Below, in pieces: positions 8,236-62,302 of a DNA stretch of 64,000 nucleotides. Below the pieces are notes generated by a model. The model was not told the DNA's origin, searched no databases, and saw only the letters and a program-made list of their open reading frames with translations. Location: NCBI RefSeq assembly GCF_030384885.1, contig NZ_CP128613.1. One strand, 5' to 3'. Numbering within the stretch: position 1 is the stretch's first letter; every line of letters starts with the position of its first letter. The position numbers were made by a program, and so were the translations under genes. Source of the stretch: Escherichia coli (GTDB lineage: Bacteria; Pseudomonadota; Gammaproteobacteria; Enterobacterales; Enterobacteriaceae).

Positions 8236-9456
8236 TTAACTCAAGGTATGGGTTACTTCCTGAATTTTGTCACCATCCAGCTCATGTTCAAAGCTGCGCA
8301 GACGTTTGTAGATAGACATCAACTCAACCAGCGTGGTCCATGAGTTAATCAGGTACTGAAAAGCACCGCGAACCTGACCAAAAACGTTGGTAATCTGCGT
8401 CATCAGGCCGAGCGTAATCGTACCGGCAACAATCGACGGAAACAGCAAGAACAAACCGAAAACGTTATCGACCTGCAAATAGAGAATGCGGGCGATGTTG
8501 AAATACATATAGTGAAAATAGAGGCGGAAATAGTTTTTCCGCACGGCGCTAAACAGCTCGCGTACCGTAGGCGGCGTCGCGCGCGATGCATCGTCTTCAC
8601 CATAAACCAACTCTTTACGGTAGGCAGCCTCTACACGCTGATTTTTAAACTCCAGTCCCGGCAGTTTGATCCCTACCACTGCCAGCAATCCGGTCCCCAT
8701 CAACGACCATACGATAGCAGCAATCACCAGACCATACGGAATATGCCCGACAATCGGCAGCTCCGGCACATGCGCAGAGAGCGTTACCAGTACCGGCAGG
8801 AAGGCGATCAACGTCATGATAGCGTTGATAAAACTGACGCCCATATTCTCAAGCGTTGAAGCAAAACGCATGGTGTCTTCCTGCACACGCTGGGCGGCAC
8901 CTTCGATATGACGCAGTTGTTGCCAGTTCGCCATGTAATATTCGTTCATCGCCGTACGCCAGCGGAACACGTAGTGACTGACAAAGAAGTTGTTCAGCAC
9001 ACTGATCACCACCGCGATCAGCGCAATCCCCAGAAAGACGCCCACTTCGCGGTAAAATTGTTCGATAGTGACTTTATGCGGCGAACTTAGCGCAGTTTGA
9101 ATCAGATCATAAAACGGCGCATACCAGGCGTTGACGGCAACTCCAACTTCCACCAAAAACCAGGTGACGAAGATAATCAACGCAGTACCGAGTATTGACC
9201 AGTATTGCCAACGATGCGGGCTATAAATAAACCAGAACAGTGCAAAAAGCCCTACGCAAACAATGTAGTAAGCGTAAAAAATCAGGAAATCTAACGACCA
9301 GAAACGCGCGGCGCTAATTGGGATCTGCCCGGAAGCTCCGGTGATGCGCGCCACCCAATCCCCCCCACCGGCTTGCCAGAAGATAACGGCAATCAATGCC
9401 CAAACAAAGGCCGAGAGAAAAAACGTTCCCGGCTTTGGGAAAAAAGACTTAAACAT
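8236..9456 (-). CDS. sbmA: Peptide antibiotic/microcin transporter SbmA
   Basis: ORF 8236-9462; start [24 protein letters not shown]; polytopic membrane protein, about 406 aa. Confidence 0.95.
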
Positions 9457-9807
9457 ATGCACTCCTGCTAACTTCTTATCGTTTTAACAACTGCTGTGTA
9501 TTAACCGCATGACCGCTACAAAGAATCAGCCAAATGAAACTGCCCATTGTGACCCATAGCAAGGCGCATAGTTCGCCAGCCTGACCATAAGAATTGTTTC
9601 GACGGATTTCACAAACCAAAGATTATTTACATTAGCGGATTAACACGCGCAGGATCACAAATGCAGGCATTGGTGAGCAGGAAAAAGATCGTGTTTACGC
9701 GCCGTTACGTTTTTAACACTATTATTGCACTAATTCGCCCTTTGCAATCCATCAATGAGTAGTATAAATACGCTCAGTTACCTTCATTCAATCTATGGAC
9801 ACCACCG

Positions 9808-10965
9808 TTGAAACGTAGTCTGCTTTTTTCTGCCGTGCTTTGTGCGGCGTTATTGACCCCCGTCCATGCGGCGCAGCCGATCACTGAACCGGAGTTCGCC
9901 TCTGATATTGTCGATCGTTATGCCGATCATATTTTTTATGGCAGTGGTGCCACGGGGATGGCGCTGGTTGTTATCGACGGTAACCAGCGCGTCTTTCGCA
10001 GTTATGGCGAAACGCGCCCGGGTAATAACGTTCGCCCGCAGCTGGATTCGGTCGTGCGTATTGCTTCGCTCACCAAGCTAATGACCAGTGAGTTGCTGGT
10101 GAAATTGCTCGACCAGGGGACCGTGAAGTTAAACGATCCGCTAAGTAAATATGCTCCACCAGGCGCACGCGTGCCGACTTACAATGGCACGCCTATTACC
10201 CTGGTGAATCTGGCAACCCATACCAGTGCCCTGCCCCGTGAACAGCCGGGAGGTGCGGCACATCGCCCAGTGTTTGTCTGGCCAACGCGCGAGCAACGCT
10301 GGAAATACCTTTCTACGGCGAAGCTGAAAGCCGCGCCAGGCAGTCAGGCGGCATACTCTAACCTTGCGTTCGACCTGCTGGCAGATGCACTGGCGAATGC
10401 TTCTGGCAAGCCTTATACCCAGTTGTTTGAAGAGCAGATTACCCGTCCGTTGGGGATGAAAGACACGACCTATACTCCATCGCCGGACCAGTGCCGCCGT
10501 TTAATGGTTGCAGAGCGCGGTGCCAGTCCATGCAATAACACGCTGGCGGCAATTGGCAGCGGCGGAGTCTATTCCACGCCTGGCGATATGATGCGCTGGA
10601 TGCAGCAGTATTTGTCATCTGATTTTTATCAGCGCAGTAACCAGGCAGATCGCATGCAGACGTTGATTTATCAGCGAGCGCAGTTTACAAAAGTGATTGG
10701 CATGGATGTCCCCGGCAAAGCGGATGCGCTTGGTTTAGGCTGGGTATATATGGCCCCGAAAGAGGGTCGTCCAGGGATTATTCAGAAGACAGGTGGTGGT
10801 GGCGGTTTCATTACCTATATGGCGATGATCCCGCAGAAGAATATTGGCGCATTTGTGGTGGTCACTCGTTCGCCATTGACGCGCTTTAAAAATATGAGCG
10901 ATGGCATCAATGACCTGGTGACCGAACTGAGCGGGAATAAACCGTTGGTCATCCCCGCGTCCTGA
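9808..10965 (+). CDS. ampH: Penicillin-binding protein AmpH (class C beta-lactamase fold)
   Basis: 385 aa; signal peptide; SxxK motif (ASLTK); the codon at 9808 is TTG. Confidence 0.9.
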   Translation: MKRSLLFSAVLCAALLTPVHAAQPITEPEFASDIVDRYADHIFYGSGATGMALVVIDGNQRVFRSYGETRPGNNVRPQLDSVVRIASLTKLMTSELLVKLLDQGTVKLNDPLSKYAPPGARVPTYNGTPITLVNLATHTSALPREQPGGAAHRPVFVWPTREQRWKYLSTAKLKAAPGSQAAYSNLAFDLLADALANASGKPYTQLFEEQITRPLGMKDTTYTPSPDQCRRLMVAERGASPCNNTLAAIGSGGVYSTPGDMMRWMQQYLSSDFYQRSNQADRMQTLIYQRAQFTKVIGMDVPGKADALGLGWVYMAPKEGRPGIIQKTGGGGGFITYMAMIPQKNIGAFVVVTRSPLTRFKNMSDGINDLVTELSGNKPLVIPAS

Positions 10966-19879: not shown

Positions 19880-20509
19880 ATGATTAGGGTTGTGCTGGTG
19901 GATGACCATGTGGTGGTGCGCTCTGGCTTCGCACAATTACTCTCTCTGGAAGACGATCTGGAGGTCATTGGTCAGTACAGTTGTGCCGCGCAGGCATGGT
20001 CGGCATTAACTCATAATGACGTTAATGTTGCCGTCATTGATATCGCCATGCCGGACGAAAATGGCCTCAGTCTGCTTAAGCGTCTGCGTGCACAAAAACC
20101 GCAATTCCGCGCCATTATTCTTAGCATTTATGACACGCCAACCTTTGTACAAAGCGCTCTGGATGCTGGTGCCAGCGGCTATTTGACCAAACGCTGTGGG
20201 CCGGAAGAGTTAGTGCAGGCGGTGCGCTCGGTCGGGATGGGCGGGCATTATCTCTGCGCCGATGCAATTCGGGCTTTACGCGGCGGCGAGCAACCCGCCC
20301 AGGCGCTGGAAATTCTCACCCCACGAGAACGTGAAGTGTTTGATTTATTAGTCAAAGGCGACAGTGTAAAAGAGATCGCCTTTAAGCTCGAACTCAGCCA
20401 TAAAACGGTACATGTACATCGCGCCAACGTGCTGGGAAAACTGAACTGTCATAGCACCATTGAGCTGGTGCATTTTGCACTCAATCACCATCTGCTGGCG
20501 GGGCATTAA
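19880..20509 (+). CDS. NarL/FixJ-family response regulator, UhpA-like
   Basis: 209 aa; receiver domain (VVLVDDH, acceptor Asp in VIDIAMPD) plus LuxR-type HTH; close in architecture to UhpA. Confidence 0.85.
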   Translation: MIRVVLVDDHVVVRSGFAQLLSLEDDLEVIGQYSCAAQAWSALTHNDVNVAVIDIAMPDENGLSLLKRLRAQKPQFRAIILSIYDTPTFVQSALDAGASGYLTKRCGPEELVQAVRSVGMGGHYLCADAIRALRGGEQPAQALEILTPREREVFDLLVKGDSVKEIAFKLELSHKTVHVHRANVLGKLNCHSTIELVHFALNHHLLAGH

Positions 20510-22050
20510 TGTCGCGTAACCTTCGTCATTGGGTGATTTCGCTGTTTATTGTGCTGGCCTGGGGAAGCGGCTGGCTGATGTTGTGGACGCTCAGCTTTTA
20601 TCTGACCAATAACGGTCAACAGGCAGTGTTATTTCTGCCGCACGGAGTTTACCTCGCTCTTCTTATTTTGCTCTCTCGCCGTTACTGGCCTGCGTTGGTG
20701 CTCCCCCCTTTGCTGATGATGTTCTGGCTGCACAGCGAGCAACTGTTGAACGGCTATCTCATGCTGGCAACGCCGGTTATTAGCCTGCTTCCTGCCATCC
20801 TTGCACAAAACGTCTGGCACCGTTTTCCACTTTACTGGCAGCGTCTGACGTTGCTGCTAGCCTCAGTAACAGCAGCTTCATTGCTGAATACAGCCATGCT
20901 AACCCCTTTTATGTCAGGCCCAATAATGCTGCCCGGTCTGACCTCATTTACCGGCGGCGTATTGTTGACGCCGTTTGTCTATCTCATCTTTGAGTTTCTG
21001 CGCCAGCAGCATCGCTATCAGCTTCTGAGACTCGATACGCATAATCCCCCCTTGCGAACCTCTTTAATCATCTGGTGTAGCCTATTTTTTATTATTGGTA
21101 TCGGCACCCAGATGGTGTTGTCGCCTGAAATCGAACGCCTGCTGCTGATCGTGGTATTTCTACCCAATGTGGTCATGGCCTGGAAATTTGGCTGGCAAGG
21201 TGGCGTACTCTCGGGGCTTTTGGGCAGCATGATGATCACTATTGCCCGCCAGATTGGCGTGGGCTTTAGTAACCTGGTGGAACTGGAGATTTTTCTCGCA
21301 ACCCAGGCATTGCTGGGAATTGGCCTGGGCATTGCCATCAGTCGCCAGCAACATCTGGCGCTAAACCTGCATCATTACCGTCAGCGACTGGAGGCAGAAC
21401 TGGCAGCACGGCGGGCATTGGCTGAAAAGCTGATCCACACCGAGGAAGACACGCGTAAAAGCCTGGCTCGCGAGCTGCACGACGAAATCGGTCAGAACAT
21501 TACCGCCATTCAGATCCAGTCGCAACTGGTGACGCGGGCACGCGATCCGGCGCAAGTTCATTCCGCAGCTAGCCAAATCAACGAACTCGCCCGCCGCATT
21601 CATCTCTCCACCCGCCAGTTGCTGCGCCAGTTGCGGCCACCCGCGCTTGATGAACTGACATTCCGCGAAGCATTACTTCATCTGATTAATGAATTTGCCT
21701 TTAGTGAACGCGGCATTCATTGCCAGTTTACCTATCAACTAACCACCACGCCAGAAAACGAAACGGTTCGCTTTACACTGTATCGGTTATTGCAGGAGTT
21801 ACTCAATAACGTCTGTAAACACGCCGAAGCCAGCGAAGTGACGATTATTCTGCGCCAGCAGGGAGAGATATTGCACCTGGAGGTCAGCGACAACGGTATA
21901 GGAATCGCCAGCGGGAAAATGACCGGATTTGGCATTCAGGGGATGCGTGAACGCGTCAGTGCCCTGGGCGGCGACTTAACGCTCGAAAAACATAACGGTA
22001 CGCGAGTAATTGTTAACCTGCCCACATTTTTGCAACAAATCGCCGGATAA
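20509..22050 (+). CDS. Sensor histidine kinase, UhpB-like (polytopic N-terminus, HisKA_3, HATPase)
   Basis: 513 aa; about 8 N-terminal hydrophobic segments; H-box ELHDEIGQ; ATPase region; start overlaps the upstream stop (TAATG). Confidence 0.85.
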   Translation: MSRNLRHWVISLFIVLAWGSGWLMLWTLSFYLTNNGQQAVLFLPHGVYLALLILLSRRYWPALVLPPLLMMFWLHSEQLLNGYLMLATPVISLLPAILAQNVWHRFPLYWQRLTLLLASVTAASLLNTAMLTPFMSGPIMLPGLTSFTGGVLLTPFVYLIFEFLRQQHRYQLLRLDTHNPPLRTSLIIWCSLFFIIGIGTQMVLSPEIERLLLIVVFLPNVVMAWKFGWQGGVLSGLLGSMMITIARQIGVGFSNLVELEIFLATQALLGIGLGIAISRQQHLALNLHHYRQRLEAELAARRALAEKLIHTEEDTRKSLARELHDEIGQNITAIQIQSQLVTRARDPAQVHSAASQINELARRIHLSTRQLLRQLRPPALDELTFREALLHLINEFAFSERGIHCQFTYQLTTTPENETVRFTLYRLLQELLNNVCKHAEASEVTIILRQQGEILHLEVSDNGIGIASGKMTGFGIQGMRERVSALGGDLTLEKHNGTRVIVNLPTFLQQIAG

Positions 22051-22122
22051 CCAGGAAAAAGTCTTAGGCATCCCGGATTTTCTCTCATCCTCTTTCACTT
22101 TCATTTTCATATAGTCAGCAAC

Positions 22123-23439
22123 ATGGAGACGACCATGCACGCGCGTTCAGCGAGAGAGATTAATCAATGCTACCGGACATTACGTCCGCGATTGCTGATG
22201 TGCATGATTATTGGCTACGCCGCATTTTATCTGACGCGAAAAAGCGTGAATTACGTCCTTCCGGCGCTGCAAACCGACCTCGGACTGGATAAAGGCGACA
22301 TTGGCCTGCTGGGTTCGCTGTTTTATCTCAGCTACGGATTGTCGAAATTTACCGCCGGACTGTGGCATGACAGCCACGGACAACGCGGTTTTATGGGCAT
22401 CGGCTTGTTCGCCACTGGGCTATTGAACGTGGTGTTTGCCTTTGGCGAATCACTTACGCTTCTGCTTGTGGTCTGGACACTGAACGGATTTTTTCAAGGC
22501 TGGGGGTGGCCACCGTGTGCCCGCTTACTGACCCATTGGTACTCCCGTAATGAACGTGGTTTCTGGTGGGGCTGCTGGAATATGTCGATCAACATTGGCG
22601 GAGCGATTATTCCGCTGATTAGCGCCTTTGCCGCCCACTGGTGGGGCTGGCAGGCCGCGATGCTGACACCGGGGATTATCAGCATGGCATTAGGGATCTG
22701 GTTAACGCTACAGCTTAAAGGCACACCCCAGGAAGAGGGATTACCGACGGTGGGTCAGTGGCGTCACGATCCGCTGGAATTACGTCAGGAACAACAAAGT
22801 CCGCCGATGGGTCTGTGGCAAATGTTGCGCACCACAATGCTGCAAAATCCGATGATCTGGCTGCTGGGTGTCTCTTATGTACTGGTTTATGTGATCCGGA
22901 TTGCGTTAAACGACTGGGGCAATATCTGGCTGACGGAAAGCCACGGCGTCAACCTACTCAGCGCCAACGCCACGGTAATGCTGTTTGAAGTGGGCGGCTT
23001 ACTCGGCGCGTTATTTGCCGGATGGGGTTCGGATTTGCTGTTTAGCGGGCAGCGAGCCCCCATGATTTTGCTGTTTACCCTTGGGTTGATGGTTTCGGTC
23101 GCTGCACTCTGGTTGGCACCGGTTCATCACTATGCCCTTCTGGCTGTGTGCTTTTTTACTGTGGGCTTTTTTGTCTTTGGCCCGCAAATGCTGATTGGAC
23201 TTGCGGCAGTGGAATGTGGACACAAAGCTGCGGCGGGTTCAATCACCGGATTTCTCGGTCTGTTCGCCTATCTCGGTGCGGCGCTGGCAGGCTGGCCGTT
23301 GTCGCTGGTTATCGAACGCTACGGCTGGTCGGGAATGTTCAGTTTACTCTCGGTCGCCGCAGTACTTATGGGTTTACTGCTGATGCCGTTACTGATGGCG
23401 GGCATCACCACCACTCACGCTCGAAGGATAAAACAATGA
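22123..23439 (+). CDS. MFS organophosphate:phosphate-antiporter-family protein, UhpC-like sensor
   Basis: 438 aa; many matches to UhpC from memory (FYLTRKS, GVSKF, CARLLT.WYSR.ERG, NDWGN, FGPQMLIG). Alternative start at 22135 has a better SD. Confidence 0.8.
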   Translation: METTMHARSAREINQCYRTLRPRLLMCMIIGYAAFYLTRKSVNYVLPALQTDLGLDKGDIGLLGSLFYLSYGLSKFTAGLWHDSHGQRGFMGIGLFATGLLNVVFAFGESLTLLLVVWTLNGFFQGWGWPPCARLLTHWYSRNERGFWWGCWNMSINIGGAIIPLISAFAAHWWGWQAAMLTPGIISMALGIWLTLQLKGTPQEEGLPTVGQWRHDPLELRQEQQSPPMGLWQMLRTTMLQNPMIWLLGVSYVLVYVIRIALNDWGNIWLTESHGVNLLSANATVMLFEVGGLLGALFAGWGSDLLFSGQRAPMILLFTLGLMVSVAALWLAPVHHYALLAVCFFTVGFFVFGPQMLIGLAAVECGHKAAAGSITGFLGLFAYLGAALAGWPLSLVIERYGWSGMFSLLSVAAVLMGLLLMPLLMAGITTTHARRIKQ

Positions 23440-24467
23440 AAATGCCCCTTACCTCTACTCTGATTGCTTCTGCCGTTGCGCTGGCAACCTTAACGGGTGC
23501 CGCACAAGCGAAAGGTCGACTGGTGGTCTATTGCAGCGCCACTAATGAAATGTGTGAGACCGAAACCAAAGCGTTTGGCGAGAAATATGATGTGAAAACC
23601 TCGTTTATCCGCAACGGCTCCGGTAGCACCCTGGCAAAAGTCGATGCTGAAAAGAAAAACCCACAGGCTGACGTCTGGTACGGCGGCACCTTAGACCCGC
23701 AGTCGCAGGCCGGCGAGATGGGCCTGTTACAGGCATATAAATCGCCTAACCTTGAACAGATCATGGAAAAATTCCGCGATCCGGCAAAAGTGAAAGGAAA
23801 CCTTTCCTCCGCCGTTTATGTGGGGATCCTCGGGTTTGGCGTCAACACAGAGCGTCTGAAAGAGAAAAACCTGCCTGTGCCGAAGTGCTGGAAAGATCTC
23901 ACCAAACCTGAATATAAAGGCGAAATTCAGATTGCCGATCCACAAAGTTCCGGTACCGCCTACACCGCGCTGGCTACCTTTGCGCAGCTGTGGGGGGAAG
24001 ATCAGGCCTTTGATTATCTAAAACAACTGAACGCCAACGTCTCCCAGTACACCAAATCAGGCATAGCCCCGGCACGTAACGCCGCCCGTGGCGAAACGGC
24101 GATTGGTATTGGCTTCCTGCATGACTACTCGCTGGAAAAAGAACAGGGCGCGCCGCTGGAGTTGATTTCCCCGTGTGAAGGTACGGGCTACGAAATTGGC
24201 GGCGTCAGCATTCTGAAAGGCGCGCGCAACCTCGACAACGCCAAACTGTTTGTGGACTGGGTATTATCAAAAGAAGCTCAGGAACTGGCGTGGAAGAAAG
24301 GGAAGTCTTATCAGATCCTGACCAATACCACCGCCGAAACGTCGCCAAATTCGCTGAAGCTCGACGACCTGAAATTAATCAACTACGACATGGATAAATA
24401 CGGTTCAACTGATGTTCGTAAGGCATTAATTAATAAATGGGTCAGCGAAGTGAAGATGGGTAAATAA
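23436..24467 (+). CDS. afuA: ABC transporter periplasmic substrate-binding protein, AfuA/FbpA family
   Basis: Start MKMPLTSTLIASAVALATLTGAAQA at 23436; the ATG overlaps the stop of the MFS gene (ATGA). Upstream 5' extension of the ORF rejected. Confidence 0.75.
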   Translation: MKMPLTSTLIASAVALATLTGAAQAKGRLVVYCSATNEMCETETKAFGEKYDVKTSFIRNGSGSTLAKVDAEKKNPQADVWYGGTLDPQSQAGEMGLLQAYKSPNLEQIMEKFRDPAKVKGNLSSAVYVGILGFGVNTERLKEKNLPVPKCWKDLTKPEYKGEIQIADPQSSGTAYTALATFAQLWGEDQAFDYLKQLNANVSQYTKSGIAPARNAARGETAIGIGFLHDYSLEKEQGAPLELISPCEGTGYEIGGVSILKGARNLDNAKLFVDWVLSKEAQELAWKKGKSYQILTNTTAETSPNSLKLDDLKLINYDMDKYGSTDVRKALINKWVSEVKMGK

Positions 24468-24478
24468 ACCCGCATTGC

Positions 24479-26614
24479 GTGCACTTGCCGGGTGCAGCAC
24501 AGACGCCTGCCCCGGCCAACCATACCGGAACTGCTATGTCACAGACACTTGCACTCCATCCCGCGAAAAAGCGGGATGCGATTTTCCTTTGGGTTTTGCT
24601 GGGCTGGCTGGCATTTATCCTGTTGCCGAGCTGGAGTCTCGATTATGGTCTGCTGGAGTCCACGAGTGATGAGATCCTCGAGGCGTACAGCTGGTCGCAT
24701 TTTAATATCAGCTGGCTGTGGTATTTACTCCCGAGTTTGCTGCTGGTTCGCCCGTTTAATGAGGCCAAACGCGAGCAGCGTAGCCGTCATTATTTTGATG
24801 CAGGCTGGGCATTGCTTTGTATAGCGTTTATGGTCATCAGTGCCACCATCGTTGGCCGCGGTCTAGGCTACGCCGCCATCGTGCTGTTTATCGAATTAAG
24901 CGCGATAATGACGCTGGCCTTAACCCGCCTCGAATGGCTGGGTGGCGACCGCTTTGTGATCGGCTCGCTGATTGCGATTGTGGCGCTGATTGGCATTTTT
25001 ATCGTCTGGCCGAGCATCGCCATTTTTATCCCGATGTTCACCAACGACGCGGGAGGGTTCGCCCCACTGGCGTTTATGAATGTGCTCTCGCAGGCACATA
25101 TTGTTCAGGTGATCGTCAACTCCATCGTCTTATCGATAGCGGTGGGTATTGGCTGTACTTTCTTCGGTCTGGTGCTGGCGATATATACCACGCGCATCGC
25201 TAAACGCAGCGCAGTAATCGGCCGCATCTTTTCCATTCTGCCAATTGTCACGCCACCGTTTGTGGTCGGCTTAGGCGTTACGCTCATGATGGGGCGCTCC
25301 GGCTACATAACGGAATTTATGGTGGAGTGGTTTGGGCTGACCAACACCAACTGGCTGTATGGTTTTACCGGGATCTGGCTGGCACAGGTCCTGGCATTTA
25401 CGCCAATGGCTTTTATGATCCTCGATGGGGCCATTAAAACCATTCATCCCTCGCTGGAAGAAGCCTCCTACACCCTGCGCGCCAGCCGCTGGCAAACCTT
25501 TAACGGTGTGTTTGTGCCGTTGTTAAAGCCCGCGCTTGCCAATGCCTTTTTAATCGTCGTGGTACAGTCACTGGCTGACTTCAGTAACCCGCTGGTGCTT
25601 GGCGGCAACTTCGACGTACTGGCGACGCAAATTTACTTCTACATTACCGGCTCGCAGCTGGATTATCAGGCCGCCAGCACCCTTGGCGCTTTCCTGCTGC
25701 TGTTCTCGCTACTGGTGTTCTGCGTCCAGTATATGTGGATTGGTAAACGCTCTTACGTCACGGTTTCCGGAAAGTCCTACCGCGGCGATGTCCAGCCACT
25801 ACCGGTCACCCTGGTGTGGAGCGTGGTCGCCATACTTGCGATATGGATTGCCTTTAACGCCCTGCTCTATGGCAGCATTTTCTACGGCAGCTTCACCGTG
25901 AACTGGGGCGTAGACTACACCCTAACGCTGGATAACTTTATCAAGTTATTTGGTCAGGGGATGAGCGACGGCGCATGGCCTTCACTGTTAGATACCTTGC
26001 TCTACGCCGGGATTGCCGCACCCATTACCGCTATTTTTGGCCTGCTCATCGCCTGGGTGGTGGTGCGCCAACAATTCAAAGGCAAAAAGACCATCGAGTT
26101 CACCACCATGTTGTGCTTTGCCGTACCGGGTACAGTGGCGGGTGTCTCGTATATTCTTGCCTTTAATAGCGCCCCAGTCTATCTCACCGGAACGGCAGCA
26201 ATTGTGATTATCTCGATGGTGATGCGCAACGTTCCGGTGGGTATTCGCGCCGGGATTGCAGGTCTGGGGCAGATCGACAAATCGCTGGATGAAGCCTCAC
26301 TTAGCCTGCGTGCGGGTTCCCTGCGAACCATTACGCACATTTTACTGCCGTTGTTACGCCCAGCTATTCTCTCGGCCCTGATTTACAGCTTTGTGCGGGC
26401 TATCACGACGGTCAGCGCCATCGTCTTTCTCGTCACGCCGGACACACGCGTGGCAACCGCCTACATCCTTAACCGCGTAGAAGACGGCGAATATGGCGTA
26501 GCCATCGCCTACGGTTCGATTCTGATCGTGGTGATGCTGGCGATTATTTTCCTCTTTGACTGGCTGATCGGTGAAGCACGTATTTCCCGTTCTAAAGCCA
26601 AAAACCAGGCGTAA
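24479..26614 (+). CDS. afuB: ABC transporter permease with two fused transmembrane domains, AfuB/FbpB family
   Basis: 711 aa maximal ORF, highly hydrophobic with duplicated permease halves; true start may be the internal ATG at 24536. Confidence 0.8.
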
Positions 26615-26625
26615 TGGAGCGCACT

Positions 26626-27672
26626 ATGAGTCAGAAAAATTTTGTGGAACTGCGCAACGTCACTAAACGATTCGGCAGTAATACGGTTATCGACAATATC
26701 AATCTCACCATCCCACAAGGGCAAATGGTGACGCTGCTCGGTCCTTCCGGATGCGGCAAAACCACCATTCTGCGTCTGGTTGCCGGGCTGGAAAAACCGA
26801 GCGAAGGGCAAATTTTTATAGATGGCGAAGATGTCACGCATCGTTCCATTCAGCAACGCGATATCTGCATGGTGTTTCAGTCATACGCTCTGTTCCCACA
26901 TATGTCGCTGGGCGAAAACGTTGGCTATGGGTTGAAAATGCTTGGCGTGTCGCGTAGTGAAGTGAAGCAGCGGGTGAAAGATGCGCTAGCAATGGTGGAT
27001 CTGGAAGGATTCGAAGACCGCTATGTCGACCAGATTTCCGGTGGTCAGCAACAGCGTGTGGCTCTGGCCCGTGCGTTGATCCTTAAGCCTAAAGTGCTGC
27101 TGTTTGATGAGCCGTTAAGTAACCTCGATGCCAACCTGCGTCGCAGCATGCGCGATAAAATCCGCGAGCTGCAAAAGCAATTTAACATCACTTCGCTCTA
27201 TGTGACTCACGATCAAAGTGAAGCTTTCGCGGTGTCCGACACCGTGTTGGTGATGAATAAAGGTCACATCATGCAAATTGGCTCGCCGCAGGATCTCTAT
27301 CGTCAGCCCGCCTCCCGCTTTATGGCAAGTTTTATGGGCGACGCCAACCTGTTCCCGGCGAACTTTAGCGAAGAGTATGTCGATATCTACGGTTATCGCC
27401 TGCCGCGCGCGGCGCATTTCCCGGCGCAAGGTAGCGGCACCGTCGGCGTTCGCCCGGAAGCCATCACCTTAAGCAATCACGGCGAAGAGAGTCAGCGTTG
27501 TGTTATTCGCCATGTCGCCTACATGGGGCCGCAGTACGAAGTGACCGTAGAATGGCATGGTCAGGAGATTTTATTGCAAGTCAACGCCACCCGTTTACAG
27601 CCCGATATTGGTGAACACTATTACCTCGAAATCCATCCTTACGGGATGTTTGTTTTAGCGGATGCGGCATAA
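26626..27672 (+). CDS. afuC: ABC transporter ATP-binding protein, AfuC/FbpC family
   Basis: Start [11 protein letters not shown] with GGAG 7 nt upstream; Walker [10 protein letters not shown]; signature [13 protein letters not shown]; Walker B LLFDEP. Confidence 0.85.
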
Positions 27673-29251: not shown

Positions 29252-29343
29252 TTTCCCGCTGATTTCGCCCCGTCCAGTTCAGACGGGGTTCTCAATACCG
29301 TCCCCGGGCAGCCGTCCGGGGATTAACCATGAGATAATGACTG

Positions 29344-30177
29344 ATGGAACTCATTGAAAAACATGCCAGCTTTGGCGGCTGGCAAAATGTGTATCGGCAT
29401 TATTCCCAATCACTGAAATGTGAAATGAATGTCGGCGTCTATCTCCCACCAAAAGCCGGGAATGAAAAATTGCCGGTACTGTACTGGCTTTCGGGCCTGA
29501 CCTGTAACGAGCAGAATTTCATTACTAAATCGGGGATGCAACGTTACGCGGCTGAGCACAACATTATTGTTGTTGCGCCAGACACCAGTCCGCGAGGCAG
29601 TCATGTCGCAGATGCCGACCGTTACGATCTCGGGCAAGGTGCCGGGTTTTACCTGAACGCAACGCAAGCGCCGTGGAATGAACATTACAAAATGTATGAT
29701 TATATCCACAACGAGTTGCCGGATTTAGTGATGCAACATTTTCCGGCAACGACCAGAAAGTCTATCTCAGGTCATTCTATGGGCGGGCTGGGCGCGCTGG
29801 TGCTGGCGTTACGTAACCCAGATGAATATGTCAGCGTCTCGGCGTTTTCGCCCATTGTCTCCCCATCGCAAGTACCGTGGGGACAGCAAGCCTTTGCCGC
29901 ATATCTTGGTGAAAATAAAGATGCCTGGTTGGATTACGATCCGGTTAGCCTTATTTCACAAGGTCAACGCGTTGCGGAAATCATGGTTGATCAAGGATTG
30001 AGTGATGATTTTTACGCAGAACAGCTGCGGACTCCAAATCTTGAAAAGATCTGCCAGGAGATGAATATCAAAACGTTAATCCGTTATCACGAGGGTTATG
30101 ATCACAGCTATTATTTTGTCTCCAGTTTTATTGGCGAGCATATTGCCTACCACGCCAATAAACTGAATATGCGTTGA
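29344..30177 (+). CDS. frmB: S-formylglutathione hydrolase
   Basis: 277 aa; esterase motif GHSMGG. Confidence 0.95.
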   Translation: MELIEKHASFGGWQNVYRHYSQSLKCEMNVGVYLPPKAGNEKLPVLYWLSGLTCNEQNFITKSGMQRYAAEHNIIVVAPDTSPRGSHVADADRYDLGQGAGFYLNATQAPWNEHYKMYDYIHNELPDLVMQHFPATTRKSISGHSMGGLGALVLALRNPDEYVSVSAFSPIVSPSQVPWGQQAFAAYLGENKDAWLDYDPVSLISQGQRVAEIMVDQGLSDDFYAEQLRTPNLEKICQEMNIKTLIRYHEGYDHSYYFVSSFIGEHIAYHANKLNMR

Positions 30178-30184
30178 GCATCCG

Positions 30185-30392
30185 CGCACGCCAGCCGGAT
30201 GCGGCGTGAACGCCTTATCCGCCTACATTTCGCCCATAAACCGTAGGCATGATAAGACGCGCATAGCGTCGCATCAGGCATCTGCGCACAACTGCCGGAT
30301 GCGGCGTGAACGCCTTATCCGGCCTACATTTCGCCCATGAGCCGTAGGCATGATAAGACGCGCAAAGCATCGCATCAGGCATCTGTGCACGG
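30185..30392. repeat. REP/BIME cluster, two tandem units
   Basis: Duplicated about 100-bp unit with GCCGGATGCGGCGTGAACGCCTTATCCGGCCTAC-type palindromes between frmB and yaiL. Confidence 0.8.
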
Positions 30393-30403
30393 CTTATCGA
30401 TGA

Positions 30404-30943
30404 TTACCACATCAAATCATCAGGCACTTTAAAGTCGGCATACGGATCGTCTTCATCCTGCTCTTCGGCGCTGAGCGCGCTGTGCAACACAATACTGCTG
30501 GCGTCACGCTGAGCAATTTTATCGGCAACGCTGGCGGGAATAATGGCGTATTCACCTTCGCTATTGTTATCGATCTGCAAACGTGCAATCGCCAGACGAC
30601 CATTAATCAACTGCGTTTGCGTGAGCTTATCGACAAAAATCTTCTTAATCAGATTGCCATCGGTAAAGTTAAAACCGATATCGCCATTGGCAATGGTGAT
30701 CCGGTTCATTTCAATAAGCTGCTTCACCTGAGCTTTATATTCTTTCGCCAGTGCCGCTTGTTTTTGCTGCTCGCTAAGCTGTTTATCACGCTCAAGCTGT
30801 GCCTTTTTATTTTCTTCTACCGCCGCCCGAGCCTCACGCGCCTGAACGCGCGATTTTTTCGCCGTTCTCTCGACCTTCGCCGCTTTTTTGCTGGTGACTA
30901 ATCCTGCTTTGAGCAACTGCTCTTGTAAGGTAAGTTTTGCCAT
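30404..30943 (-). CDS. yaiL: DUF2058-family protein YaiL
   Basis: ORF 30404-30955; start MAKLTLQEQLLKAGLV at 30943; lysine/glutamine-rich. Confidence 0.85.
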   Translation of the reverse strand: MAKLTLQEQLLKAGLVTSKKAAKVERTAKKSRVQAREARAAVEENKKAQLERDKQLSEQQKQAALAKEYKAQVKQLIEMNRITIANGDIGFNFTDGNLIKKIFVDKLTQTQLINGRLAIARLQIDNNSEGEYAIIPASVADKIAQRDASSIVLHSALSAEEQDEDDPYADFKVPDDLMW

Positions 30944-31044
30944 CTTTGTTTCCAAACCCGCTGAATAATTTTTAGCGAGTATACCTGTAAACGCCGTAGG
31001 TGTATTGGGGGCAAGTCCCTTTCGCCCCTACCTAATAAGGCGCG

Positions 31045-32256
31045 TCAGGCATCGGCGCACGGCTGCATTCGTGATCTCCGGCTCATCAAAATAAACACTG
31101 CCAGGCCAGCAACAAAAATACCCGGCGCTGAAGCGGCCATTACGCCAACCGTGCCAGTACCTAATGCCAGCATTTTCCCGGCCAGTAACGGACCGCTCAT
31201 AGCCCCCAGACGCCCTACCGCCACGGCGGTTCCCACGCCGGTTGCGCGGATCTGCGAACTGTAAAACAACGGAGCCAATGCATACAAAACGCTTTGCCCA
31301 CCTGTTGCAAACAACCCTGCGACGAATCCCGCCAGCAACATACCGTTAAATGATGACACTGTTCCCAGCGCTAACAGCGAAGCTAACATACCGCTATAAA
31401 TCAGTAGCGACATGATCATTGGACGCAGTTTATCCATCAGTGCGCCCAATATTAACGTCCCGCTTGCCGCCCCCATTTGTAGTGCAAACATCACCCCTGC
31501 CGCCTGCGATGGCTGGAATCCTTGTTCCACTAAAAGCAGCGGTAGCCAGTTGATCAACATGTAGACCACCAGCAAAGTGAAGAAATAACACAACCACAGC
31601 AGCAGCGTTGCGGTTGCCGTGTCGGGCGCAAATAACGCACGCAGCGGCGGCGCAGCCTGTTTTTCGCCAGCGAACACCGCCGACTCCGGCAGCCAGCGCA
31701 TTAACAGTGGCACCAGAATCAACGGCACCACACCACCTACCCAAAACACCGTTTGCCAGGCTAAGTTTGCCCCTGCAAAACCCAGTGTCGCCGCCAGCGC
31801 CGCGCCAATGGGAACCCCGCAATACATCAGGCTCACCGCCGTTCCACGAAAACGTGGCCCCGCCGCTTCAGACGTCAGGGCGATAAGATTCGGCAACGCC
31901 GCCCCCAGCCCGACACCGGTCATCAGCCGCGCAAAGACCAGTGAGGGGAAATCCCAGGCAATAGCCGTTGCCAGCGAGAACAAACCAAACAGCGCAACTG
32001 AACCAATCAAAATGCGTTTACGACCATAACGGTCCGCCAGCATTCCGCCAACCAGCGCGCCGGGTAGCAAACCGAGTATTCCGGCACTGAATATCCAGCC
32101 CATTTGCATTTTATCGAGTGCAAAAGCCTGGGCGATGCCACCCGCCGCAATGCCAGCCGCCTGAAGATCCAGTCCTTCCATCAGAGCGACTAAAAAACAA
32201 AGCCCGATGGTCAGCATCAGGCGGGATGAAGATGATGAAGGGGTACGAGTCGACAT
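31045..32256 (-). CDS. mhpT: 3-(3-hydroxyphenyl)propionate MFS transporter
   Basis: ORF 31045-32325; start MSTRTPSSSSSRLMLTIGLCFLVALMEG at 32256; about 403 aa. Confidence 0.9.
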   Translation of the reverse strand: MSTRTPSSSSSRLMLTIGLCFLVALMEGLDLQAAGIAAGGIAQAFALDKMQMGWIFSAGILGLLPGALVGGMLADRYGRKRILIGSVALFGLFSLATAIAWDFPSLVFARLMTGVGLGAALPNLIALTSEAAGPRFRGTAVSLMYCGVPIGAALAATLGFAGANLAWQTVFWVGGVVPLILVPLLMRWLPESAVFAGEKQAAPPLRALFAPDTATATLLLWLCYFFTLLVVYMLINWLPLLLVEQGFQPSQAAGVMFALQMGAASGTLILGALMDKLRPMIMSLLIYSGMLASLLALGTVSSFNGMLLAGFVAGLFATGGQSVLYALAPLFYSSQIRATGVGTAVAVGRLGAMSGPLLAGKMLALGTGTVGVMAASAPGIFVAGLAVFILMSRRSRMQPCADA

Positions 32257-32334
32257 AAGATGAACCTCGTTGCGAATGCAGGTGAATCGCGGCTGATACA
32301 TTGCCAGCCGCGTAATCAAAACCATTTAATGACT

Positions 32335-32535
32335 GCCTACGGACGAAAGTAGGCCGGATAAGGCGTTTATGCCGCATCCGGCAGTCGTGCACAGATGCCT
32401 GATGCGACGCTGACGCGTCTTATCATGCCTACAAATTCCCGCGCCATCCGTAGGCCGGATAAGGCGTTTATGCCGCATCCGGCAGTCGTGCGCCATTGCC
32501 TGATGCGACGCTGACGCGTCTTATCAGGCCTGGGA
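32335..32535. repeat. REP/BIME cluster, two tandem units
   Basis: Repeated GGCCGGATAAGGCGTTTATGCCGCATCCGGCAGTCGTGC ... GCCTGATGCGACGCTGACGCGTCTTATCA units between mhpT and mhpE. Confidence 0.8.
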
Positions 32536-32564
32536 TGGGTATACAAAATGCACGTTGCCAGCAG

Positions 32565-33580
32565 TCAACATGATTTGTTGTTGCACAGATCCAGCGCCAC
32601 GTCGACGATCATATCCTCCTGGCCGCCGACCATCCGGCGTTTACCCAGCTCAACGAGAATATCCACCGCGCTTAAACCATAACGCGCCGCCGCCGTTTCA
32701 CAGTGACGCAAAAAGCTTGAGTAAACACCAGCGTATCCCAGCGCCAGCGTTTCGCGGTCGACACGTACCGGACGATCCTGCAACGGACGCACCAGGTCGT
32801 CAGCGGCATCCATTAACGCATAGAGATCGGTCCCATGCTGCCAGCCCAGTTTATCCGCGGCGGCAATAAACACTTCCAGCGGTGCGTTACCTGCACCCGC
32901 GCCCATCCCCGCGAGGCTGGCGTCAATGCGGTCACAGCCCTCTTCCACCGCCGCGATAGAGTTCGCCACGCCAAGACTCAAGTTATGGTGAGCATGCATG
33001 CCGGTTTGCGTTTCCGGTTTCAGCACCGCTTTCAGGGCGCGGAAACGGTCACGGATATCGCTCATGTTCATCGCACCGCCAGAATCCACCACATAAATAC
33101 AGGTCGCACCGTAGCCTTCCATCAGCTTTGCCTGTTTTGCGAGATTCTCTGGCGTGGTCATGTGGCTCATCATCAGAAAGCCAACGGTATCCATTCCGAG
33201 TTCGCGGGCATACTGAATATGCTGAGCGGAAACATCAGCTTCGGTGCAGTGCGTAGCCACACGAACCACCCGCGCGCCAGCCTGCCAGGCATTTTTCAGA
33301 TCGTGAATAGTGCCAATTCCTGGCAGCAATAACGTCGCGATTTTGGCGTGCTTCACCACATCCGCCGCTGCTTCAATCCATTCAAGGTCGCTATGCGCAC
33401 CGAAACCATAGTTAAAGCTGGAACCCTGCAAACCATCGCCGTGGGCCACTTCAATCGAATCCACGCGGGCATCATCCAGTGCTTTGGCAATCTGGCGAAC
33501 ATTTTCAAGTGAATACTGATGACGAATGGCGTGCATACCGTCACGCAACGTGACGTCTGAAATATAAAGTTTTTTACCGT

Positions 33581-33584
<4 letters not shown>
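32565..33584 (-). CDS. mhpE: 4-hydroxy-2-oxovalerate aldolase
   Basis: 339 aa; DRE_TIM-type aldolase, [19 protein letters not shown] start; overlaps the mhpF stop. Confidence 0.95.
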
Positions 33585-35346
<1,762 letters not shown>

Positions 35347-39967: not shown

Positions 39968-40756
39968 GTGGAGCAAATCATGAAAATTACTCAAATTCGT
40001 AATGCCACCCAAATTATCCAATACGCTGGCAAAACATTTCTTATTGACCCGTTACTCGCGCCTAAAGGAAGTTATCCGGGTTTTGCCGGAACGGCACGCG
40101 CAGAAATCCGCAATCCAACGGTAGAATTACCGTGTGATTTAACAACGTTACTCAACGTTGACGCCCTAATAGTGACCCATTTGCATGAAGATCACTGGGA
40201 CGAAACAGCCTCCCGCGTCGTCCCCAAAGATAAACAGATTTATGTGCAAAATGAGCAAGATGCTGAATCACTGCATAAACAAGGATTTACGCATCTTACC
40301 GTACTTGCCGACGAGACTAAATTTGGCGATATTACTCTGCATAAAACGACAGGGCAGCACGGCTCCGATCGCACCTATGCAGACCCGGCTATGGCGAAGC
40401 GTTTAGGCGCAGCCTGCGGCGTTGTTTTCCAGCACCCGACAGAGAAAACGCTCTATCTGGCTGGCGATACCCTCTGGCGTGATGACGTCGAGGCTACAAT
40501 GCTAACTTTCCAACCAGAAGTGGTGGTGTTGAATGCCGGATTTGCGCATGTTCTGGGGCATGGCGCGATAATTATGGGAGCTGAAGATATTCTCAAAACA
40601 CATTTTACCCTGCCAGAAGCGCAAATTGTCGCGACACATATGGAGGCCGTAAACCACTGTTTGCTGACGCGTGATGCGCTCAAGGAATACGCCAGAGATA
40701 ATCAAATTATCGAATTTGTGAACGTACCAGAAGATGGTGAAACGTTGACATTCTAA
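39968..40756 (+). CDS. Metallo-beta-lactamase-fold hydrolase, function unknown
   Basis: 262 aa; THLHEDHWDE metal-binding motif (HxHxDH-like); SD GGAG 8 nt upstream; not present in K-12 as I recall it. Confidence 0.75.
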   Translation: MEQIMKITQIRNATQIIQYAGKTFLIDPLLAPKGSYPGFAGTARAEIRNPTVELPCDLTTLLNVDALIVTHLHEDHWDETASRVVPKDKQIYVQNEQDAESLHKQGFTHLTVLADETKFGDITLHKTTGQHGSDRTYADPAMAKRLGAACGVVFQHPTEKTLYLAGDTLWRDDVEATMLTFQPEVVVLNAGFAHVLGHGAIIMGAEDILKTHFTLPEAQIVATHMEAVNHCLLTRDALKEYARDNQIIEFVNVPEDGETLTF

Positions 40757-40775
40757 TTCGGAGATAAAGAGTGTT

Positions 40776-41729
40776 ATGCGCCCGCTAACTGTTGCCATTA
40801 TCGCCGTTGCCGGTTTTAGTCCTTTTCACCTTTCCGTACCGTTTATCGTGTTTAGCGAAAAAATGGCGGAGAAAAAACGCTTTCATGTAATTATCTGCGC
40901 TGAAAAGCCGGGAAATGTGGACTCTGCCGATGGGTTTTCCGTAACCGCCACCCATGACTATACGGCAGTCATCCAGGCGGATATTGTGATAATTCCTTAC
41001 TGGGGAACAATTACACAAAAACCGCCACAAAAACTGCTGGAAGCCTTAACGACCGCACGAGATAACGGGGCACAGATTGTCGGGCTTTGCCTGGGCACGT
41101 TTGTGCTCGGCTATGCAGGTTTACTGAACAATAAGCGTGCTGCCACGCACTGGGAGTTCGAGCGTGAATTTCAGGCACGTTTTCCACAAACACATCTGGA
41201 TATTAACGCGTTGTATGTAGACGATGATGGCATTATTACCTCTGCCGGTACTGCCGCGGCGCTGGATTGCTGTTTGTATATTGTTCGGCAACATTTTGGC
41301 AGCGACTATGCTAACCATATTGCCCGACGGATGGTCGTACCGCCATATCGCACCGGCGGTCAGGCGCAGTTTATAGAGCAACCGGTGCCGAAAAATACCC
41401 ATGATGAACGCATTAACCTCCTGCTGGATTACCTGCGGCAAAACATTGCGCAACAGCATGATCTCGACTCGCTGGCTCAGCGAGTAATGATGAGTCGCCG
41501 CACACTAACCCGTCATTTTATGAAAGCGACCGGTTCGAGTATCGCCGAATGGCTCATCACTGAACGCTTACGCCGTAGCCAGGAACTGTTGGGATCCAGT
41601 CAGTTGCCCGTTGAGCGGATAGCGGCTGAGGTGGGTTTTCTCTCACCTGTGACCTGGCGTCAGCATTTTAAATCTCACTTCGGCGTCAGCCCCGCAGAAT
41701 GGCGCAAAACCTTTCGTGGTATGGCATGA
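40776..41729 (+). CDS. GlxA-type transcriptional regulator (DJ-1/PfpI-like domain plus AraC HTH)
   Basis: 317 aa; N-terminal class I amidotransferase-like fold, C-terminal AraC HTH; the 3' end contains the lacI promoter. Confidence 0.8.
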   Translation: MRPLTVAIIAVAGFSPFHLSVPFIVFSEKMAEKKRFHVIICAEKPGNVDSADGFSVTATHDYTAVIQADIVIIPYWGTITQKPPQKLLEALTTARDNGAQIVGLCLGTFVLGYAGLLNNKRAATHWEFEREFQARFPQTHLDINALYVDDDGIITSAGTAAALDCCLYIVRQHFGSDYANHIARRMVVPPYRTGGQAQFIEQPVPKNTHDERINLLLDYLRQNIAQQHDLDSLAQRVMMSRRTLTRHFMKATGSSIAEWLITERLRRSQELLGSSQLPVERIAAEVGFLSPVTWRQHFKSHFGVSPAEWRKTFRGMA

Positions 41730-41730
41730 T
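41702..41730 (+). promoter_or_regulatory. lacI promoter (-35 GCGCAA, -10 CATGAT)
   Basis: Near-identical to the classical K-12 PlacI sequence; here it lies inside the last codons of the upstream regulator gene. Confidence 0.7.
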
Positions 41731-51486: not shown

Positions 51487-51590
51487 CCGCTGACACAGGT
51501 CAGCGGCTGGAATTGCCTGATGCGCGACGCTTATCAGGCCTACGAGTTCAGTGCAAGGCGTTCACGCCGCATCCGACATAAACTACGCTC
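51487..51590. repeat. Perfect hairpin plus REP element in the cynR/codA convergent gap
   Basis: GCCGCTGAC-ACAG-GTCAGCGGC (9-bp stem) directly after the cynR stop, then a REP-like unit; no T-tract. Confidence 0.5.
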
Positions 51591-54297: not shown

Positions 54298-54645
54298 GAT
54301 AAGACACGCCTGCGTCGCATCAGGCATCTGCGCACGGTGTCGGATGCGGCGCGTGCGCCTTATCCGACCTGCGGTTCAGGCCTGTAGGCATGATAAGACG
54401 CGTCAGCGTCACATCAGGCATCTGCGCACGGTGTCGGATGCGCCGCGTGCGCCTTATCCGACCTACGGTTCAGGCCTGTAGGCATGATAAGACGCGCCTG
54501 CGTTGCATCAGGCATCTACGCATAGCTGTCGGATGCGCCGCGTGCGCCTTATCCGACCTGCGGTTCAGGCCTGTAGGGATGATAAGACGCGTCAGCGTCG
54601 CATCAGGCATCTGCGCACGGTGTCGGACGCGCCACACGACACATC
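54298..54645. repeat. BIME/REP tandem array, about 3.6 units with 94-95 bp period
   Basis: Unit CGCATCAGGCATCTGCGCACGGTGTCGGATGCG.CGCGTGCGCCTTATCCGACCTGCGGTTCAGGCCTGTAGGCATGATAAGACGCG repeats from about 54316, 54410, 54505 and 54599. Confidence 0.85.
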
Positions 54646-59275: not shown

Positions 59276-59465
59276 GTTGTCGGATGCGACGCTATGCGTC
59301 TTATCCGACCTACAGTTCAGTTCATCCCGTAGGCCTGATAAGCCGCGTCAGCGACGCATCAGGCATCGGTTGTCGGATGCGACGTCATGCGTCTTATCCG
59401 ACCTACAGTTCAGTTCATCCCGTAGGCCTGATAAGCCGCGTCAGCGGCGCATCAGGCATCGGTTG
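59276..59465. repeat. BIME/REP tandem array, two units with 94 bp period
   Basis: TTGTCGGATGCGACG..ATGCGTCTTATCCGACCTACAGTTCAGTTCATCCCGTAGGCCTGATAAGCCGCGTCAGCG.CGCATCAGGCATCGG repeated from 59276 and 59370. Confidence 0.8.
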
Positions 59466-62205: not shown

Positions 62206-62302
62206 AATGCCGAATCCAGCGCGAACGCCTTATCCGGCATAAATTTCAATAGATGATCACCGATAAACTTACGCATCGGGCATGTTTACATGGGGTGCAG
62301 AA

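Follow-up and report, generated by a model that had tools for sequence, protein, structure and literature searches.

Two clusters of REP sequences stand on either side of yaiL and mhpT in a 64-kb stretch of Escherichia coli DNA (the window). Their placement raises the question of whether they are separate members of a dispersed repeat family or the two ends of one element that carries the genes between them, and what they do in the transcripts that contain them. The first-pass annotation put the clusters at 30185–30392 and 32335–32535, with two tandem units each, and read them as elements that mark operon boundaries and stabilize mRNA and as sites prone to recombination.

The names and boundaries that it gave for frmB, yaiL, mhpT and mhpE are correct, because the RefSeq annotation agrees with them. 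RefSeq gene order is frmR–frmA–fghA (frmB) on the + strand, followed on the − strand by yaiL, mhpT, mhpE and then mhpFDCBA. The last gene of frmRAB, frmB (fghA; 29344–30177, +; stop codon 30175–30177), converges with yaiL (DUF2058; 30404–30943, −), and array 1 lies in the gap between them. Array 2 lies in the gap between the tandem genes mhpE (32565–33584, −), which is the last gene of mhpABCDFE and lies transcriptionally upstream of the array, and mhpT (31045–32256, −), which encodes the 3-hydroxyphenylpropionate transporter. The coordinates of the arrays, set against the RefSeq genes, thus bear out the flanking positions at the frmB and mhpE boundaries. The sequence of strain 2013C-4282 (NZ_CP027579.1; E. 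coli, human stool) is 100% identical to the window.

Two arrays of the BIME-2 type

Tandem Repeats Finder reports a period of 101 in both intervals (array 1: 30178–30390, 2.1 copies, 91% matches, score 354; array 2: 32349–32531, 1.8 copies, 93% matches, score 331), in agreement with the two clusters of two tandem units noticed at first pass. A repeat search of the window finds direct repeats spaced 100–101 bp in both arrays. To type the repeats we used Y, Z1 and Z2 consensus strings that we take to be those of the Gilson/Bachellier motifs; the Y string has 0 mismatches to K-12 copies. A fuzzy scan with these strings typed eight REPs, each with 0–4 changes from consensus, and all eight match Y or Z2 best and none Z1. 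A failure of the repeats to align with the REP consensus, which would speak against their identity, did not occur. Each array comprises four REPs, or two 101-bp Y–Z2 units, with the strand order + − + − in array 1 and − + − + in array 2. A degenerate REP pattern matches the window 5 times, whereas 100 shuffles give an expectation of 0.00.

Three of the Y–linker–Z2 units cover all 77 positions of the Rfam family naRNA4 (RF02564), scoring 84.1, 76.8 and 75.8 bits where the gathering threshold is 59.5 bits; REP325, a Y/Z2 array, is the source of that family. BIME-1 elements are marked by a long L linker that contains an IHF site. The IHF consensus WATCAANNNNTTR has no match in either array, and neither array holds a Z1 REP, which excludes a BIME-1 or IHF-site identity. 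BIME-2 elements are defined by z2 and y REPs, a short S linker and multiple tandem copies (Ton-Hoang et al. 2012, PMC3333891), and because Y and Z2 alternate here, the S linkers are short, the IHF site is absent and the copies are in tandem, the arrays are BIME-2. The consensus scan, the naRNA4 model and the linkers all bear out the REP/BIME identity proposed at first pass.

Further features shared with BIME-2 are the GTAG/CTAC feet, the GC/TT stem mismatch of Y, the extragenic site and a number of copies that varies between strains. The REPs also conform to the E. coli type, an imperfect palindrome of 30–40 nt with a conserved foot and a mismatch in the stem. The foot is CTAC in 7 of the 8 REPs and CTGG in the other, and the mismatch is kept in all Y copies (GCCGGAT-GC-GGCG...CGCC-TT-ATCCGGC). 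The differences, a terminal Z2 that ends in CTGG rather than CTAC and a 1-nt deletion in the first Y, are inessential. REP325, in the yjdM–yjdN array, has the same Y–linker–Z2 unit and, like array 2, lies between tandem genes, but it has six units rather than the two in each array here, and array 2, unlike REP325, is transcribed opposite to the orientation of its best naRNA4 matches.

A 4.3-kb query that spans the region matches 173,069 places in 5,425 genomes (median 33 per genome, which is an undercount), so the REP family is dispersed and of high copy number. The two arrays very probably belong, as independent BIME-2 arrays, to the ordinary E. coli REP family, and each is made of two 101-bp units with a Y, an inverted Z2 and short linkers. 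This family has long been known, the arrays are ordinary members of it, and the instability of the locus has been described before. Arrays of this kind and their gene context can be recognized from raw sequence; beyond this, and the strain comparison below, the assignment has little consequence.

Structure of the arrays

Array 1 opens with a partial head-to-head (S-type) linker (30178–30193, +) that is homologous to 30278–30293. The first Y REP follows (30194–30226, +), reading GCC...CTAC on the + strand and identified by the consensus scan in spite of its 1-nt deletion (CCG-CCTAC). A 16-nt tail-to-tail linker, ATTTCGCCCATAAACC (30227–30242, +), joins it to a Z2 REP (30243–30279, −; consensus scan) in the naRNA4 match at 30246–30324 (−), the one of 75.8 bits. 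After the 14-nt head-to-head S linker ATCTGCGCACAACT (30280–30293, +), the second unit has a Y REP that matches its consensus without a mismatch (30294–30327, +), a 16-nt tail-to-tail linker (30328–30343, +) and a Z2 REP (30344–30380, −), the − strand 5′ end of which follows the stop codon of yaiL at a distance of 23 nt. A partial S linker (30381–30392, +) closes the array.

At its mhpT edge, array 2 begins with a REP tail remnant, GCCTAC, and a short tail-to-tail linker, GGACGAA (32336–32348, +). A Y REP with the loop variant CATAAAC (32349–32382, −) is joined by the 14-nt head-to-head S linker AGTCGTGCACAGAT (32383–32396, +) to a Z2 REP (32397–32432, +); this unit gives the naRNA4 match at 32352–32429 (+), 76.8 bits. 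The 17-nt tail-to-tail linker AAATTCCCGCGCCATCC (32433–32449, +) is unrelated to those of array 1. Next come a Y REP identical to 32349–32382 (32450–32483, −), a 14-nt head-to-head S linker (32484–32497, +) and the terminal Z2 REP (32498–32533, +), in which the tail CTGG replaces CTAC and which ends 31 nt short of the stop codon of mhpE; the naRNA4 match here (32453–32530, +) scores 84.1 bits.

The 14-nt head-to-head linkers are homologous across the two arrays, and the arrays are mutually reverse-complementary, with a best arm pair of 66 nt that is 92% complementary and 2 kb apart. Units are 90–94% identical within an array and about 81% identical across arrays; most of the cross-array differences affect the loops or the tail-to-tail linker.

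A third, degenerate BIME, missed at first pass, appears in the repeat search of the window between yaiL and mhpT (31000–31066, −). Its segment 31041–31066 is homologous to the S linker and the head of Z2 (22 of 26 positions), and on the − strand 31066–31045 reads CAGCCGTGCGCCGATGCCTGA; beyond this segment a degenerate hairpin region extends on the same strand down to CCTAC. Both arrays are extragenic, between annotated coding sequences; the remnant is the exception, since 31041–31066 overlaps the 3′ end of mhpT and encodes its last six codons (QPCADA) and TGA stop, as it does in K-12.

Copy number varies between strains in whole units

The first-pass annotation proposed a comparison of copy number across strains, and this reveals polymorphism at both loci. 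Array length was read from the span of matches to the array flanks alone. The mhpE–mhpT flanks occur together in 4,828 of 5,426 genomes, from which 58 full-length matches were sampled; the sample is spread by rank, not random, and over-represents K-12 derivatives. By size, the inserts fall into classes of about 62–66 bp (34 matches), 161 bp (6), 201 bp (1, from the genome of the window itself), 264 bp (2), 363 bp (1) and 464 bp (14, the K-12 type). REP scans of fetched examples show that these classes hold 1, 3, 4, 5, 7 and 9 REPs, respectively, so that the commonest sampled allele has a single Y REP (34 of 58). Across strains the number at this locus is 1, 2, 3, 4, 5, 6, 7 or 9.

At frmB–yaiL, where the flanks occur together in 5,292 genomes, the sample contains 32 arrays of one unit (about 115 bp, a Y and a Z2, checked in S65EC) and 26 of two units (about 215 bp). 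In five strains whose mhpE–mhpT arrays carry 1–9 REPs, the frmB–yaiL array is constant. Both arrays are therefore polymorphic in whole units, and mhpE–mhpT is much the more variable.

Changes at mhpE–mhpT are seen among close relatives. The eight genomes nearest the window, with flanks at least 99.4% identical, have inserts of 301–302 bp, or 6 REPs in three units, and a group with 98.3% identical flanks has 2 REPs. Compared with its nearest relative, MFDS1019527, the window has exactly one in-register 101-bp unit fewer, with the exchange point between the first and second Y REPs.

The terminal Z2 of array 2 (32498–32533) is absent from most E. coli, in which the array ends in Y followed by a truncated S linker; the allele ending in Z2 is common to a small group of genomes only. 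On the mhpE side the variable boundary is a C|T step in every case; most strains read …GTGC|TGGG there and the window …GGCC|TGGG. This step resembles TnpA_REP cleavage sites (PMC3333891), but as it carries only 1 nt of information it is indistinguishable from chance, and we do not take it as a mark of RayT cleavage.

Earlier work drew attention to the mhpE–mhpT array, as a REP cluster near lac in K-12 and F′128 (Lin et al. 2011, PMC3161906). That array is orthologous to array 2, with the same flanks, Y/Z2 units and linkers, and differs in having 9 REPs and ending in Y, whereas the array in the window has 4 and ends in Z2. The strain comparison provides a clean, quantified case of BIME-2 copy-number polymorphism at an experimentally known rearrangement hotspot next to lac.

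Instability and the rayT locus

The mhpE–mhpT array takes part in 20% of the listed rearrangement junctions in lac-amplification isolates, and the hotspot of junctions in the lac region has been ascribed to secondary structure that stalls replication (Lin et al. 2011, PMC3161906). Together with the in-register differences of one 101-bp unit between near-identical strains, these junctions uphold the description of the locus as recombination-prone. Repeats combined with secondary structure would favour replication slippage, unequal exchange and template switching; these could then add and remove units and make the mhpE–mhpT array a hotspot of rearrangement. As read from the alignments, the unit changes between strains fit slippage or unequal exchange of 101-bp units.

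A transposase would not be needed for such changes, because relatives differ by a simple in-register 101-bp unit. In the literature, E. coli rayT is always single-copy and at the yafL–fhiA locus, and replacement by hicAB is known, mostly in the B1 clade. In the window strain the interval from the flhA/fhiA fragment to yafL, which holds rayT in K-12 derivatives, contains hicA/hicB, and the cognate rayT (tnpA_REP) is absent from this locus, the only one searched. REPIN/RAYT systems (Bertels & Rainey 2011; Nunvar 2010) likewise consist of inverted REP doublets, and other E. coli have a single-copy rayT, whereas in the window strain hicAB occupies the rayT locus and the unit change is simple and would need no transposase. 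Array copy number at mhpE–mhpT changes even between near-identical genomes of a lineage apparently without rayT.

The idea that the Δ(lac-proAB) deletion of JM109 ends in the mhpE–mhpT BIME was discarded; its junction is at the mhpE/mhpF boundary. A 'FHIPEP' feature had prompted the idea, and the extra matching pieces are the BIMEs beside rayT.

Proposed roles in RNA and DNA

Both arrays occupy 3′ untranslated or intercistronic positions, and as RNA they fold far better than shuffled sequences in every transcribed orientation (z = −4.5, −4.7 and −4.6). The operon-boundary and mRNA-stabilizing roles proposed at first pass fit these positions and the predicted folding. Transcripts of frmRAB and yaiL would end in array 1, and array 2 would be transcribed as the mhpE–mhpT spacer. 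Hairpins in these transcripts may block 3′-to-5′ exonucleases and so protect the upstream message, and, as leaky attenuators that depend in part on Rho, they may also hold back read-through, such as that from mhpE into mhpT. In the form of DNA, to judge by other REPs, the arrays may also be favoured sites for gyrase to bind and cleave.

No hairpin with a U-tract or similar intrinsic-terminator-like site was found inside either array, and intrinsic termination within the arrays was rejected; any termination there would therefore be non-canonical. The nearest candidate is a weak terminator-like site that overlaps the mhpE stop codon (32572–32551, −), and the total count of such sites is not above that in shuffles. 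REPs within 15 nt of a stop codon reportedly stall ribosomes (Liang, Rudd & Deutscher 2015). The nearest REPs are 16 nt after the stop codon of frmB, 23 nt after that of yaiL and 31 nt after that of mhpE, so REP-induced stalling of this kind is not expected, although frmB is borderline.

Experiments on other arrays give an indication of what these may do. The Y/Z2 array REP325, between tandem genes, stabilizes the upstream mRNA and attenuates the downstream gene in a partly Rho-dependent manner (Harris et al. 2026 preprint). Across the genome, tandem gene pairs with a REP between them show expression biased towards the upstream gene, and convergent pairs with a REP show higher expression of both genes; REP effects are highly context-dependent, and a general increase in mRNA half-life was not seen (Harris et al. 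2026 preprint). For the mhpT promoter and its transcription, a literature search yielded nothing useful.

We tentatively suggest, as a conceivable though somewhat unlikely extension, that copy number at mhpE–mhpT is a heritable, fast-evolving rheostat for the amount of mhp transcription that reaches mhpT and for the stability of the mhpABCDFE message. If so, strains would differ in 3-hydroxyphenylpropionate uptake without any change in coding sequence or promoter. The natural alleles of 1–9 REPs would form a ready-made series for the recent proposal of 'REPs as tunable dials'.

Upstream of the mhpT start codon, in the 5′ leader between it and array 2, is a perfect 8-bp hairpin with a 9-nt loop (32288–32312, −) that is not a REP.

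Alternative readings

The arrays might instead act mainly as DNA, as strong gyrase sites, independent of transcription, that relieve supercoiling between convergent or tandem transcription units, with any RNA effects incidental. BIME-2 elements carry more gyrase cleavage sites than expected, mainly in Y REPs, and the signal of these sites rises when transcription is blocked (PMC6379681). Both arrays are BIME-2; however, only a subset of BIME-2 elements has such sites, and the frmB, yaiL, mhpE and mhpT loci are not named in the supplements of that study (PMC6379681). A large array is not required either, because a lone Y REP is the commonest state in the sample, and a comparable array shows large RNA-level effects in direct experiments (Harris et al. 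2026 preprint). We regard a mainly DNA-level role as unlikely. Still less probable, to the point of being very doubtful, is that the units encode small RNAs of the naRNA4 type that act with HU to condense the nucleoid. Three units exceed the Rfam gathering score, and this role was proposed for REP325 RNAs (Qian 2015), but the Rfam family in effect models the Y–linker–Z2 unit of BIME-2, so a match denotes the sequence family and not a function; moreover, the best matches of array 2 are on the + strand, antisense to mhp transcription. The condensation model is itself now disputed: in a study from the same laboratories, REP325 and naRNAs had no effect on nucleoid volume, no stable ternary complex was seen and there were no REP–REP contacts in Hi-C (Harris et al. 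2026 preprint). Boundary and stabilizing roles of the transcribed hairpins are the reading that we prefer over both.

The inverted arrangement of the arrays could also suggest a single composite element with an array at each end, which would carry yaiL and mhpT and be either REPtron- or transposon-like or an invertible segment. The 66-nt arms described above are consistent with this, as is the presence of BIMEs on both sides of rayT itself in K-12. However, a synthetic query for the inverted junctions was covered at ≥80% in 0 of 5,418 genomes, on which ground inversion of yaiL–mhpT between the arrays was rejected, and the native junctions are intact (frmB–yaiL in 5,292 genomes and mhpT–mhpE in 4,828). 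The tail-to-tail linkers of one array are unrelated to those of the other, and each array varies in copy number on its own, frmB–yaiL staying constant in the five strains in which mhpE–mhpT ranges from 1 to 9 REPs, and the arrays are therefore independent. Nor is their proximity unusual: the window has five or six REP clusters, one every ~11–13 kb and always between tandem or convergent genes, so two that are 2 kb apart are unremarkable. A composite element is extremely improbable, and nothing suggests that the 'bracketing' of yaiL–mhpT carries meaning beyond position; two independent BIME-2 arrays account for the locus. Deletions point the same way, in that the B2-type deletion, which is large and common, takes mhpT and spares yaiL. 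About 500 genomes are without the mhp flanks, and one fetched example, FDAARGOS_1298, has lost mhpR through mhpT, which is the known B2-type arrangement; its yaiL-side breakpoint corresponds to window position 31008/31009, adjoining the BIME remnant.

An apparent decayed BIME at the mhpT 3′ end

A degenerate BIME remnant lies at 31000-31066 on the minus strand, where mhpT ends. The final six codons of mhpT and its TGA stop, CAGCCGTGCGCCGATGCCTGA, are homologous to the S linker of BIME-2 elements plus the head of a Z2 REP, and a decayed hairpin/CCTAC remnant comes after the TGA. This homology suggests that a decayed BIME was the apparent source of the mhpT 3′ end, and K-12 carries the identical sequence.

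The remnant also adjoins a breakpoint. Strain FDAARGOS_1298 has the known B2-type arrangement, in which the entire mhp cluster is missing; its homology to the window ends at 31008/31009 (7708/7709 of the fetched region, L004) and restarts within a 99-bp fragment from the C-terminal end of a GlxA-family regulator next to lacI. The mhpT and mhpE flanks of the repeat array are absent from about 500 of 5,426 genomes. In the window, an MBL-fold metallo-hydrolase and the GlxA-family regulator are both encoded by intact genes at approximately 39980-41730 (8317-10066 of fetched region L012), between mhpR and lacI. Because K-12 has neither gene in this interval, and the fetched B2-type strain retains only a fragment of the regulator, the window strain appears to keep a fuller mhpR-lacI arrangement, which is probably ancestral.

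A possible rare haplotype and differences in gene content

Across 29300-33600, the window shares only about 93-96% identity with K-12 and with the majority of other E. coli; among over 5,400 records, only 9-11 reach 99% identity or more. The nearest relatives of the frmB-yaiL part form a different set from those of the mhpT-mhpE part, which suggests a rare, mosaic haplotype. Gene content differs farther upstream as well: between tauA and frmR (19880-27672), the window encodes a response regulator, a MASE1 histidine kinase and a UhpC-like receptor, together with the substrate-binding protein, permease and FbpC-type ATPase of an ABC transporter, where the other fetched strains have yaiP, an acetyltransferase and yaiO instead.

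REPs, hairpins and the rayT site

The Z2 loops of the frmB-yaiL array (30243-30380), CTATG and CTTTG, occur in reversed order in the window relative to the K-12 locus, and this swap hints that here, too, units have been gained and lost in the past. Four other REP sites were found in the window, each between tandem or convergent genes: a single Z1 REP between the convergent cynR and codA (51515-51543), an array of five Y/Z2 REPs in the prpE-codB gap (54339-54608), two Z2 REPs in the prpB-prpC gap (59329-59457) and a weak Y-like copy in the prpR-yahO gap (62209-62242).

Two hairpins lie near the mhpE-mhpT array, outside its REPs. The mhpT 5′ leader can form a perfect 8-bp stem, CGCGGCTG/CAGCCGCG, around a 9-nt loop (32288-32312), approximately 32 nt 5′ of the start codon; the stem has one A·C mismatch in other strains. 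The mhpE stop codon overlaps a weak hairpin (32551-32572, minus strand) that resembles a terminator, has a T-rich tail and lies just upstream of the array as transcription runs. Terminator-like sites in the surrounding region are no more numerous than in shuffled sequences.

Outside the window, the yafL-fhiA site of the identical strain (NZ_CP027579.1, 2447215-2447842; 6216-6843 of fetched region L015) is occupied by hicA/hicB, where K-12 derivatives have rayT. At the one locus known for that gene, the window strain therefore has no REP-associated transposase. This replacement of rayT by hicA/hicB has been described previously, mostly in B1-clade strains.
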